Shown in pieces: positions 11,901 to 54,316 of a DNA stretch of 64,000 bases. The notes below the pieces were generated by a model. That model did no database searches. It was not told the origin of the DNA and saw nothing but the letters and a program-made list of their open reading frames with translations. The stretch's first letter is position 1. Every line of letters starts with the position of its first letter. The stretch lies in NCBI RefSeq assembly GCF_003018115.1, contig NZ_CP027457.1; one strand, written 5' to 3'. Made by a program: the position numbers and the translations under genes. The DNA is from Escherichia coli (GTDB lineage: Bacteria; Pseudomonadota; Gammaproteobacteria; Enterobacterales; Enterobacteriaceae).

Positions 11901-12111
11901 CAGAGGTCATGACATCCGGGCTGGCACCTGGGTAGAGCGTGACCACCTGAATGGTCGGATAGTCCACTTCCGGCAGCGCCGAAACGGGCAGGGCGCGATA
12001 ACCGATAATCCCGGCGAGTAAGATCGCCACCATCAGCAGCGTGGTGGCCACAGGACGCATAATAAACAGGCGCGACGGGCCGCCTGTGCTGCTCGGGGGT
12101 AACACCTGCAT
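8989..12111 (-). CDS. mdtB: RND multidrug efflux transporter MdtB
   Basis: 1040 aa RND permease; start overlaps the mdtA stop. Confidence 0.95.
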
Positions 12112-13358
12112 CAGGAGCGTGCTCCTTTTTTCGCGTATTCGCGGCTGGTGGCTTTCTCTTCCGGAGTAGTGGCGCTCTGGGCTTCCACCACTTCCACTTT
12201 CGCCCCTTCGGTCAGGCGATCAATGCCGTCTGTCACCACGCGATCGCCCGCAGAAATACCTGCACGGATCACCACTTTCTGACTGTCCTGAATGCCCGGC
12301 GTCACCAGATGTTTGCTGACCTTGTTTTCGCTACTCAGCACCCAGACAAAATGGCCTTCATTGCCCATTTGCAGGGCGGCCGTTGGGATCACTACGGCGT
12401 TTTGTTCGGTGTCGACTAACATGCGCGCGTTAACAAACTGATTGGGAAACAGCGCATCATCCTGATTATTAAAGCGTGCTTTCACTTTAATCGTACCGGT
12501 TGTGGCATCGATTTGGTTATCGAGGCTTAACAGCGTGCCTTCACTTAATTTCTTCGAATTGGTGCGATCCCAGGCTTCTACCACCAGCGGTTTTCCGGCT
12601 TTTTGCGCCTGCACTACAGTAGCGATATCGCTTTCCGGCAGGGTAAAGACTAAATCGATAGGATGCGTCTGGGTGATCACCACAATTCCGGTGGTATCAC
12701 CACTGGAGATTTGGTTACCAACATCAACCTGCTTGAGACCAACGCGACCATCGACTGGTGCGGTGATGCGGCTCCAGTCGAGTTGCAGCTGCGCGCTGGC
12801 GACGCTTGCTTCATCAGCCTTAATGGTGCCTTCGGTTTCACTGACCAGCGCCTGTTGGGCATCCAGCTCCTGACGGGAGACGAGATTGGTTTTTGCCAGT
12901 TGCTGATAACGCGCCAGATCACGGCGGGCGTTAGCAAGCGTGGCTTTATCTTTTGCCAGTTGGCCCTGGGCTTGTGCTAATGCAACTTTGAACTGGCTGG
13001 GGTCAATTTCTGCCAGTAAATCGCCTGCTTTGACCTGCTGGCCTTCCTGGAAATGTAACGCCATCAGTTGACCGTCCACGCGGCTGCGCACCGTAACAGT
13101 ATTAGCGGCGGTAATGGTGCCAAGCCCGATGAGGTAACGCGGAACTGCCTGTTCTACGGCGGTCGCCGCCTGAACCGGGGCTAATGGGCCGGAACGCATA
13201 CCACGGCGACCACCCGCTGGCGATTGCTGCGCTTGTTTCGTCGCCCCTGGGGCTGCACTCTGGGAGTCATTGCGGCCTTGCCAGAACCAGAATGCGGCGA
13301 TGGCGGCGATAACCACCACGATTACGATTACCCAACGGGATTTATAACTGCCTTTCAT
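12111..13358 (-). CDS. mdtA: Membrane fusion (periplasmic adaptor) protein MdtA
   Basis: Track ORF 12111..13505; conserved start [15 protein letters not shown] at internal ATG (complement of 13356-13358); RND adaptor family. Confidence 0.9.
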
Positions 13359-13429: not shown

Positions 13430-13585
13430 TGGAGGAATTATGAAACACTATCGGGAATCGTCTGAATGGCGGGCACATTTGCGAGCACGCATCCAGTAAT
13501 AACACAGGAAACTATTTTATCTACGCGTTAGCGATAGACTACATACAGGGCGAAAGGAGGTAAGCCGCAGATTTCAGCCGGATGC

Positions 13586-13729
13586 TGAAACGGGAAAGCC
13601 CCTCCCGAGGAAGGGGCCTTAAATAAGGAAAGGGTCATGATGAAGCTACTCATCATCGTGGTGCTCTTAGTGATTAGCTACCCAGCATACTAAGACTACC
13701 AGGGCGGGGGAAACCCCGCTCTACCCTCA
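13586..13729 (-). ncRNA. sibB: Sib antisense sRNA (antitoxin to ibs), copy 1; ends approximate
   Basis: Antisense to the ibs ORF; candidate -35 TTGACA (complement of 13759-13764) and -10 TACTTT (complement of 13736-13741); hairpin 13598-13620 followed by a T-rich run on the minus strand as terminator. Confidence 0.5.
13637..13693 (+). CDS. ibsB: Type I toxin Ibs (18 aa, MMKLLIIVVLLVISYPAY), IbsB-like
   Basis: 19-codon ORF encoding a hydrophobic peptide of the Ibs family; located between mdtA and yegL as ibsA/ibsB are in K-12. Confidence 0.75.
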   Translation: MMKLLIIVVLLVISYPAY

Positions 13730-13913
13730 CTCCTGAAAGTATGCCTTCACGATAAGATTGTCAATCCGCAGGCTTTGCCGTCTGCGATCCTGCCAGCAAA
13801 AATTCTTTGCGAGACGTTACGCAATAATCACACTGGAAACTATTTTATCTGCAAGTCAGCGATAGACTAAGTGCATGGCGAAAGGAGGTAAGCCGACGAT
13901 TTCAGCGGGACGC

Positions 13914-14057
13914 TGAAACGGGAAAGCCCCTCCCGAGGAAGGGGCCTTAAATAAGGAAAGGGTCATGATGAAGCTACTCATCATCGTGGTGCTCTTAGTC
14001 ATAAGCTTCCCCGCTTACTAAGACTACCAGGGCGGGGGAAACCCCGCTCTACCCTCA
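13914..14057 (-). ncRNA. Sib antisense sRNA, copy 2; ends approximate
   Basis: Same promoter/terminator arrangement as copy 1, shifted by one repeat unit. Confidence 0.45.
13965..14021 (+). CDS. ibsB: Type I toxin Ibs (MMKLLIIVVLLVISFPAY), IbsB-like, second copy
   Basis: Same 19-codon ORF, one residue different from copy 1; repeat unit 2. Confidence 0.75.
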   Translation: MMKLLIIVVLLVISFPAY

Positions 14058-14242
14058 CTCCTGAAAGTATGCCTTCACGATAAGATTGTCAATCCGCAGG
14101 CTTTGTAGTCTGCGATCCTGCCAGCAAATATTCTTTGCGAGTCGTTACGCAATAATCACAGAGGAAACTATTTTATTCACGCGTTAGCGATAGACTGCAT
14201 TCAGGGCGAAAGGAGGTAAGCCGATGATTTCAGCGGGACGCT

Positions 14243-14386
14243 GAAACGGGAAAGCCTCTCCCGGAGAAGAGGGCTTTTAATAAGGAAAGGGTTATGATGA
14301 AGCACGTCATCATACTGGTGATACTCTTAGTGATTAGCTTCCAGGCTTACTAAGAACACCAGGGGGAGGGGGAAACCTCTCCCTAA
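14243..14386 (-). ncRNA. sibA: Sib antisense sRNA, copy 3; ends approximate
   Basis: Antisense to the third ibs ORF; flanking hairpin gcctctcccggagaagagggc conserved in position. Confidence 0.4.
14294..14353 (+). CDS. ibsA: Type I toxin Ibs (19 aa, MMKHVIILVILLVISFQAY), IbsA-like
   Basis: 20-codon ORF in the third, more diverged repeat unit; nearest to yegL. Confidence 0.7.
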   Translation: MMKHVIILVILLVISFQAY

Positions 14387-14573
14387 CCCTCACTCCTGAA
14401 ATTATGTCACTCCGCCCTTAGTGTCAATCGACGGCTCTCCGTTCTTGCGAGGCGAATAGCAAAATTTTCTGCGCCGCCGGGCCTAATTCTGAAAGTTTCT
14501 TCGTTTGCTCTTATTTCATTATTGCAGTCGGTATGATACCGGACCTCGATAATTCTCTAAGAAAGGATTTCTT

Positions 14574-15233
14574 ATGAGCGAACAAATCACGTTTGCCACC
14601 AGCGATTTTGCCAGTAACCCGGAACCACGTTGCCCCTGCATTTTGCTGCTGGATGTTTCTGGTTCTATGAACGGTAGACCTATTAATGAACTTAACGCCG
14701 GATTGGTTACCTTTCGTGATGAACTGCTTGCTGATCCGCTGGCTTTAAAAAGAGTGGAACTCGGCATTGTGACGTTCGGCCCGGTGCATGTGGAACAACC
14801 CTTTACCAGCGCCGCTAATTTTTTTCCGCCCATCCTGTTTGCCCAGGGCGATACACCAATGGGTGCGGCCATTACCAAAGCCCTGGATATGGTAGAGGAG
14901 CGGAAACGTGAGTATCGTGCAAATGGTATTTCGTATTATCGCCCGTGGATTTTCCTGATTACCGATGGTGCACCAACCGATGAGTGGCAGGCTGCAGCCA
15001 ACAAAGTGTTTCGGGGGGAAGAAGATAAAAGGTTTGCTTTCTTTTCCATCGGTGTTCAGGGGGCGGATATGAAGACGCTGGCACAAATCAGCGTTCGTCA
15101 GCCTTTGCCTCTGCAAGGATTACAATTCCGTGAACTGTTTAGCTGGTTATCCAGTTCGCTGCGTTCGGTTTCCCGCTCCACGCCGGGAACGGAAGTTGTG
15201 CTGGAAGCGCCAAAAGGCTGGACGTCAGTGTGA
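14574..15233 (+). CDS. yegL: von Willebrand factor A (vWA, TerY-like) domain protein YegL
   Basis: 219 aa; vWA MIDAS-like segment [12 protein letters not shown]; first gene of a three-gene operon with overlapping stops/starts. Confidence 0.85.
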
Positions 15234-29915: not shown

Positions 29916-29954
29916 CAGTGTATTGGTAGCTAAAAAGCCAGGGGCGGTAGCGTG
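29916..29954 (+). promoter_or_regulatory. JUMPstart element with ops site (GGCGGTAGCGTG) in the wza leader
   Basis: cagtgtattggtagctaaaaagccaggggcGGCGGTAGCGTG matches the 39-bp JUMPstart/ops motif used by RfaH. Confidence 0.8.
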
Positions 29955-44482: not shown

Positions 44483-44569
44483 GAATGCGAAACCGAGATG
44501 TAAATAACGACAAAAACAAAATTGGCCGTTTCGGTCAGGGCCAACTATTGCCTGAAAAAGGGTAACGAC

Positions 44570-54277: not shown

Positions 54278-54316
54278 CAGTGCTCTGGTAGCTGTAAAGC
54301 CAGGGGCGGTAGCGTA
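54278..54316 (+). promoter_or_regulatory. JUMPstart element with ops-like site (GGCGGTAGCGTA) in the O-antigen operon leader
   Basis: cagtgctctggtagctgtaaagccaggggcggtagcgta; nearly identical to the element upstream of wza. Confidence 0.8.

Follow-up and report, generated by a model that had tools for sequence, protein, structure and literature searches.

The region between mdtA and yegL in the analysed Escherichia coli DNA (a 64-kb stretch, hereafter the window) contains a tandem array of three ~328-bp units at positions 13478–14465. The array, its flanking genes and the elements assigned within it are listed below.

12111–13358, minus strand: mdtA, left flank, 415 aa (named as in RefSeq at the identical locus; syntenic with K-12 mdtA)
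13478–13805: repeat unit 1, B-type (placed by the repeat register; as a separate copy without counterpart in K-12)
13593–13728, minus strand: Sib-1 antitoxin RNA, 136 nt (RF00113, 141.6 bits; ends from K-12 sibB)
13637–13693, plus strand: ibs-1 ORF, MMKLLIIVVLLVISYPAY, 18 aa and stop codon (translation; RefSeq WP_001386901.1)
13736–13764, minus strand: predicted sib-1 promoter (TTGACA −35 at 13764–13759, 17-nt spacer, TACTTT −10 at 13741–13736; start 7 nt on, at 13728)
13806–14133: repeat unit 2, B-type (orthologous to most of the K-12 ibsB/sibB unit)
13921–14056, minus strand: Sib-2 (SibB) RNA, 136 nt (RF00113, 142.0 bits; 99.3% identical to K-12 SibB)
13965–14021, plus strand: ibs-2 ORF, MMKLLIIVVLLVISFPAY (identical to K-12 IbsB; RefSeq WP_001386899.1)
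14134–14465: repeat unit 3, A-type (the K-12 ibsA/sibA unit)
14248–14391, minus strand: SibA RNA, 144 nt (RF00113, 149.5 bits; 100% identical to K-12 SibA)
14294–14353, plus strand: ibsA ORF of unit 3, MMKHVIILVILLVISFQAY, 19 aa and stop codon (identical to K-12 IbsA; RefSeq WP_010723109.1)
13575, 13903 and 14231, plus strand: putative ibs mRNA starts of units 1, 2 and 3 (by homology to the +1 of ibsC and ibsD; 5' UTR of ~62 nt)
14574–15233, plus strand: yegL, vWA-domain protein, right flank (ORF list; RefSeq annotation)

Tandem Repeats Finder delineates the array at 13497–14406 with a period of 328, 2.8 copies, 88% matches and a score of 1419, and it is the sole tandem repeat of the 64-kb window at a score of at least 60. 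Direct-repeat families with start-to-start spacings of 328 and 328–335 nt reproduce the unit boundaries in register from 13478. In the alignment the homology of unit 3 runs to ~14465, beyond the end called by Tandem Repeats Finder, because it includes the sib promoter region. Units 1 and 2 share 90.9% identity, differing at 30 of 328 aligned positions, and units 1 and 3 and units 2 and 3 share 73.4% and 74.0%, respectively. The true start of mdtA is the ATG at 13358, the protein beginning MKGSYKSRW. Annotation and base-by-base alignment give the array the same flanks as in K-12, so that its chromosomal position agrees with membership in the Ibs/Sib family.

The Rfam model RF00113 (SIB_RNA), whose family was formerly called QUAD repeats, yields three full-length minus-strand matches, at 13622–13764, 13950–14092 and 14279–14427, each antisense to one of the three ibs ORFs. 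The bit scores listed above compare with a gathering score of 56, and the E-values range from 1e-30 to 1e-32. The model starts 36 nt upstream of the Sib RNA, at TTGACA, because it includes the promoter. The RNA ends themselves were transferred from the K-12 sibA and sibB annotation through base-by-base alignment. Sib-1 runs from 13728 down to 13593 and spans ibs-1 from the Shine-Dalgarno sequence and start codon through the entire ORF. The predicted minimum free energy structures of all three RNAs share one architecture, comprising a closing stem, three internal hairpins, a single-stranded anti-Shine-Dalgarno stretch (TRD2) and a terminator hairpin, as expected of family members; that of Sib-1 is the same as that of SibB. 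The fold z-scores are −3.86 for Sib-1, −4.41 for Sib-2 and −4.39 for SibA, and none of 200 shuffled sequences folded as well.

In all three units the hydrophobic ibs ORF of 18–19 codons lies, together with its ribosome-binding site, wholly inside the opposite-strand Sib transcript, and all three peptides are homologous to the characterised IbsA–E peptides. The translations bear out the earlier note on this DNA, which was made from the sequence alone: it had described three tandem Ibs/Sib type I toxin-antitoxin modules of about 328 bp, the first two IbsB-type and differing by one residue (Y versus F), the third IbsA-like. Peptide 2 is K-12 IbsB exactly and peptide 1 differs from it by the single substitution F15Y. 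Unit 3 and the K-12 ibsA/sibA unit agree at 342 of 342 nt. RefSeq labels ibs-1 'type I toxin-antitoxin system Ibs family toxin' at the 100%-identical locus.

The sib promoters were assigned by visual inspection of the sequence. Every unit carries a perfect TTGACA −35 box (13764–13759, 14092–14087 and 14427–14422), a 17-nt spacer and a weak −10 box (TACTTT or TAATTT); a consensus promoter scan reported the sib promoter in none of the three units because the −10 box is too weak. The putative ibs mRNA starts were placed through a TCAGC motif conserved in all three units and aligned to the +1 of ibsC and ibsD, positions that were defined by T7 primers (Han et al. 2010, PMC2943612). A sigma-70 consensus scan upstream of these starts found no promoter. 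Judged from sequence conservation, three Sib RNAs and three ibs mRNAs are presumably transcribed from the array.

The K-12 members of the family provide the model for how each unit would act. Overexpressed Ibs is toxic and is suppressed by the cognate Sib in K-12 (PMC2943612). The Ibs peptides are membrane toxins, and according to a 2025 preprint Salmonella IbsA inhibits the Fo sector of ATP synthase. Sib is fully complementary to the ibs ORF and its initiation region and contains two independent recognition domains, TRD1 in a hairpin loop and the single-stranded TRD2 (PMC2943612; PMC4147584); once paired, the ibs mRNA is no longer translated and decays in an RNase III-dependent manner (PMC2943612; PMC4147584, Wen and Fozo 2014). 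By analogy, the plus strand would give an ibs mRNA of ~155 nt encoding an inner-membrane peptide of 18–19 hydrophobic residues, and the minus strand a constitutive Sib RNA of 136–144 nt, perfectly complementary to the full ORF and the ribosome-binding site. The two RNAs would pair through TRD1, directed at the ORF's 3' part, and TRD2, directed at the translation-initiation region. Translation would then be blocked and the mRNA degraded with the aid of RNase III, such that the toxin would normally not be made.

K-12 carries five ibs/sib copies in all (PMC4147584). Between yegL and mdtA, the MG1655 annotation and the alignment place two units, sibA/ibsA and sibB/ibsB, as the earlier note had stated. 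Pairwise alignment shows that K-12 is without exactly 328 bp relative to the array, which thus has one more B-type unit. The single B-type unit of K-12 is a fusion of units 1 and 2: it matches copy 1 at 15 of 15 informative sites up to 13542 and copy 2 at 14 of 14 from 13545. The K-12-type junction was inspected in K-12 alone and, from the pairwise alignment and the table of informative sites, is located as follows.

13542–13545, paired with 13870–13873 in unit 2: crossover interval of the K-12-type deletion

Given this clean two-block chimera, K-12 most likely lost one unit through unequal crossing-over between units 1 and 2, an argument of parsimony. The earlier note had instead taken copies 1 and 2 for a recent duplication of the IbsB-type unit. 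Such a history, in which a K-12-like ibsB/sibB unit was recently duplicated in the lineage of this strain and three copies are the derived and unusual state, accords with copies 1 and 2 being closer to one another (90.9%) than either is to copy 3 (73–74%) and with peptides that are one residue apart. However, the 30 differences between the two units are far above the divergence of the strain from K-12 around the array (~0.1–1.6%, counted over the regions aligned). The 15/15 and 14/14 blocks of the K-12 unit also contradict a recent duplication, because duplication followed by independent divergence cannot yield a two-block mosaic.

The frequency of the three-unit form was assessed with a 1321-bp query over the array, which matched 5,419 of 5,426 complete E. 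coli genomes. The best match has at least 99% identity in 1,008 records, and all sampled rows of that band are full-length three-copy arrays. Many records are 100% identical over the 1321 bp, and there RefSeq annotates two 'Ibs family toxin' genes and ibsA. These numbers make it scarcely credible that the third copy is an assembly artefact. Short-read assembly can go wrong at tandem repeats of ~330 bp, but the 30 differing sites make the copies distinguishable, and the 1,008 records come from complete genomes. Copy number was then taken from a census of two evenly spaced samples of 60 records obtained with different ranking queries, with counts corrected from dissected loci and, for loci L005, L007 and L010, taken from RefSeq feature tables. 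The proportions below refer to a genome collection in which laboratory K-12 derivatives and outbreak clones are over-represented.

Three units: 24–25 records per sample of 60 (~41%)
Two units: 25 records per sample of 60 (~42%)
Four units: 7 records per sample of 60 (~12%)
One unit: 2–3 records per sample of 60 (~4%)

Arrays of one, two, three and four units were retrieved and dissected, which upholds the suggestion of the earlier note that copy number varies between strains. Its implication that three copies are rare does not stand: three are as frequent as two among the sampled complete genomes and are already annotated by the NCBI pipeline. Three or four units occur in O157:H7, O111, O145, strain 042 and CE10. 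The two-copy class is mixed. The K-12-type array consists of the unit 1/2 chimera followed by the A-type unit, and the two-copy arrays of the SF-468, 536 and NU14 type have no A-type transcript. The second unit of these phylogroup-B2-type strains is a chimera different from that of K-12, B-type on the left and A-type on the right.

The two B-type transcripts recur in other strains. Relative to Sib-1 and Sib-2, the alleles of CE10 show 0 and 1 differences and those of APEC20/16 show 1 and 0; both paralogues are therefore old and conserved. The retention of both alleles in CE10, APEC20/16 and O157-like strains, together with a three-unit form in ~40% of the sampled complete genomes, further argues against a recent duplication in this lineage, which is very improbable.

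Outgroups were surveyed by an exact 19-base pattern scan of species-representative genomes, which under-samples, and BLAST was then applied to the loci retrieved. A Sib unit next to mdtA is kept in Citrobacter, Kluyvera, Pseudocitrobacter and Salmonella enterica subsp. arizonae and diarizonae, mostly as a single unit that is nearest to the A type. The non-coli Escherichia representatives have one or two units; E. fergusonii was not recovered by the exact 19-base scan. Six matches in metagenome-assembled genomes (Chloroflexi, Desulfobacterales and others) show no homology to the unit and are due to chance. The mostly single-unit outgroups and the one or two units of non-coli Escherichia argue for an expansion of the array within Escherichia, with the two-unit state of K-12 as a probable secondary reduction. 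That distant genera are mostly single-unit also means that the array expanded at some point, as the duplication history set out above would have it.

The one or two units of the non-coli Escherichia representatives may also be read in favour of a two-copy, K-12-like ancestor. The three-copy array would then stem from recombination with a diverged array, in which unequal exchange inserted a foreign unit, and the extensive mosaicism of units between strains indicates that recombination between strains occurs. Nonetheless, copy-1-like and copy-2-like units are present together in many unrelated strains with three or four units (the array-identical strains, O157:H7, O111, O145, 042 and CE10), and a single deletion is the simpler event. 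An ancestral two-copy state is accordingly unlikely, and loss of a unit in K-12 is the preferred direction of change.

The distribution of differences between units 1 and 2 bears on whether both are functional. The Sib body holds 5 differences in 136 nt and the remainder of the unit 25 in 192 nt (Fisher p = 0.003); the differences avoid the Sib body, which indicates purifying selection. The comparison of 21 B-type units from 10 strains shows an almost invariant Sib body and initiation region, with variation clustered in TRD1, in the 5' region of ibs and upstream of the sib start. It is quite improbable that one of the units, copy 1 being the likeliest, has lost its function and is decaying. 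Such decay would fit the absence of a separate copy 1 from K-12 and many other strains, and a deletion of all five sib genes in K-12 that reportedly gives no phenotype, according to an abstract by Fozo and colleagues from 2008. Against it, copy 1 keeps an intact ORF with its Shine-Dalgarno sequence and start codon, an intact sib −35 box and an intact Sib fold and terminator, and the Sib-1 transcript sequence is identical in CE10, besides the purifying selection on the Sib body.

The five differences between Sib-1 and Sib-2 all fall in one short segment.

13672–13687: TRD1 segment with all five Sib-1/Sib-2 differences (sites 13672, 13675, 13680, 13684 and 13687)

Five sites placed at random among 136 would lie inside a 16-nt stretch with a probability of 0.0004. 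In ibs, four of the five changes are synonymous and the fifth is F15Y. Sib-1 and Sib-2 are identical at 20 of 20 positions of TRD2, and the adjoining hairpin loop is identical as well. The confinement of the Sib-1/Sib-2 differences to TRD1 is the one small new detail of this analysis, absent from the literature covered. Either TRD alone suffices for repression (Han et al. 2010, PMC2943612), and TRD2 is common to the two RNAs; cross-repression is therefore to be expected, and Sib-1 and Sib-2 each probably repress both toxin mRNAs, the cognate one and that of the other unit. The perfect complementary runs between Sib-1 and ibs-2 are 79 and 41 nt long, and those of SibC/SibD, which discriminate, are at most 17 nt. 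For SibD and SibE, discrimination is reported despite a perfect run of 36 nt between them, and thus long complementarity alone is no proof of cross-repression. K-12 SibD and SibE differ in both recognition regions, whereas Sib-1 and Sib-2 share TRD2 wholly.

Taken together, the array very probably represents three members of the known Ibs/Sib type I toxin-antitoxin family at a locus made polymorphic, with one to four units, by unequal crossing-over; the two-unit form of K-12 would be a secondary deletion that fused units 1 and 2, and Sib-1 and Sib-2 would probably cross-repress. Unequal crossing-over between units would generate the polymorphism seen in E. coli. A bolder extension, which is speculative and rather doubtful, regards the array as a recombining cassette system. 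Unequal crossing-over would make chimeric Sib/ibs pairs and change the copy number between one and four, and selection would focus divergence in TRD1 through synonymous changes, partly insulating neighbouring modules. If so, strains would differ in the number of independently controllable Ibs toxins, and units 1 and 2 would be at an intermediate stage, with TRD1 diverged and TRD2 still common.

As a discovery the array matters little, since earlier publications cover the family and how it acts, as well as its arrangement in tandem and its variation in copy number. The three-copy array is already known and is annotated in many public genomes. Repeat number is reportedly stated to vary in the same abstract of 2008 by Fozo and colleagues. 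Variation of ibs number between strains was published by Fozo et al. 2010 (PMC2887945), whose Table 1 counts 7 ibs genes each in S. boydii and E. fergusonii, 6 in EDL933, 4 in S. flexneri and 2 in Salmonella. No paper treating sibA/sibB jointly with yegL/mdtA came up in a literature search, and the T1TAdb paper contains nothing specific to the mdtA–yegL locus. The modest value of the analysis is a corrected perspective: K-12 is not the reference state at mdtA–yegL, and arrays of three or four units occur in about half of the complete E. coli genomes sampled. Work on Ibs/Sib specificity, deletion phenotypes and persistence that is confined to K-12 misses the IbsB-Y15 and Sib-1 alleles. The pair of Sib-1 and SibB, with TRD2 common and TRD1 different, offers a natural test of the two-domain recognition model.

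The closest known systems include the arrays of the same locus. Three-unit mdtA–yegL arrays in RefSeq include those of 120899, GE3, RM10466, CE10, O157:H7 and 042; the 100%-identical records differ from the present array in nothing, and other three-copy strains encode allelic peptides such as MMKILIIVVLLVISYPAY and MMKWIIIVVLLVISFPAY. K-12 ibsA/sibA and ibsB/sibB resemble the array in intergenic region, unit length, Sib architecture, TRD layout and antisense geometry. Apart from the fused B-type unit, K-12 SibB differs by one additional TRD2 substitution, TTTATG as against TTTAAG in Sib-2. Tandem duplication within one intergenic region was a search criterion of Fozo et al. 2010 (PMC2887945). 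The ibsD/sibD–ibsE/sibE pair and the ldr/rdl repeats of K-12 are likewise type I modules tandemly duplicated in one intergenic region, but they occupy other loci and have other sequences than the mdtA–yegL array.

Apart from the Ibs/Sib array, no tandem repeat in the 64-kb window reached a score of 60, and neither tRNA nor tmRNA genes were detected in it. The A/B and C/D/E units differ entirely in the sequence immediately upstream of the inferred ibs start, as seen by comparing the window units with the retrieved loci L012 and L013. The segment GGCGAAAGGAGGTAAGCCG is conserved at this position in the A/B units, and no -10 element could be recognised immediately upstream of their inferred ibs start.

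In the array of strain 730V1 (O19:H7; comparison locus L007, positions 1238-1587), the first and second ibs ORFs are spaced by 293 nt instead of 328 nt, and the left segment of unit 2 is strongly divergent, with 42-49 mismatches over 91 nt. This suggests an internal deletion or rearrangement within the array of this strain.

Two genome-search matches carry DH5alpha labels. NZ_CM135829.1 (H41), given as 'DH5alpha' in RefSeq, contains the three-copy array with 99.7% identity to the window, while NZ_CM151409.1 (H101), labelled DH5a, contains the K-12 two-copy form. The former probably does not derive from K-12; mislabelling or contamination may account for this record.

Downstream of the array, the starts of long polysaccharide operons are probably marked by two JUMPstart elements, and a match to the algC RNA motif is located between them:

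Window 29916-29954, + strand, JUMPstart RNA element (RF01707, 57 bits, gathering score 35)
Window 44516-44565, + strand, algC RNA motif (Rfam RF02929, 78 bits, gathering score 33.8)
Window 54278-54316, + strand, JUMPstart RNA element (RF01707, 57 bits, gathering score 35)

Judged by gene order on the K-12 map, the operons at the two JUMPstart elements are plausibly those for colanic acid and O-antigen.

Tandem Sib units also occur outside E. coli, as in these retrieved comparison loci:

L015 577-726 and 953-1103, two Sib-like units of Escherichia albertii NBRC 107761, ~376 nt apart
L020 8717-9166, two tandem A-like Sib units of Pseudocitrobacter faecalis, ~276 nt apart, adjoining mdtA

Neither mdtA nor yegL had a match on the contig segment that carries the E. 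albertii units, which form a tandem Sib pair at a locus other than mdtA-yegL. This pair is possibly the equivalent of sibD/sibE. The P. faecalis units belong to a genus outside Escherichia and are found in tandem at mdtA; therefore, tandem expansion at the mdtA site may have occurred more than once.
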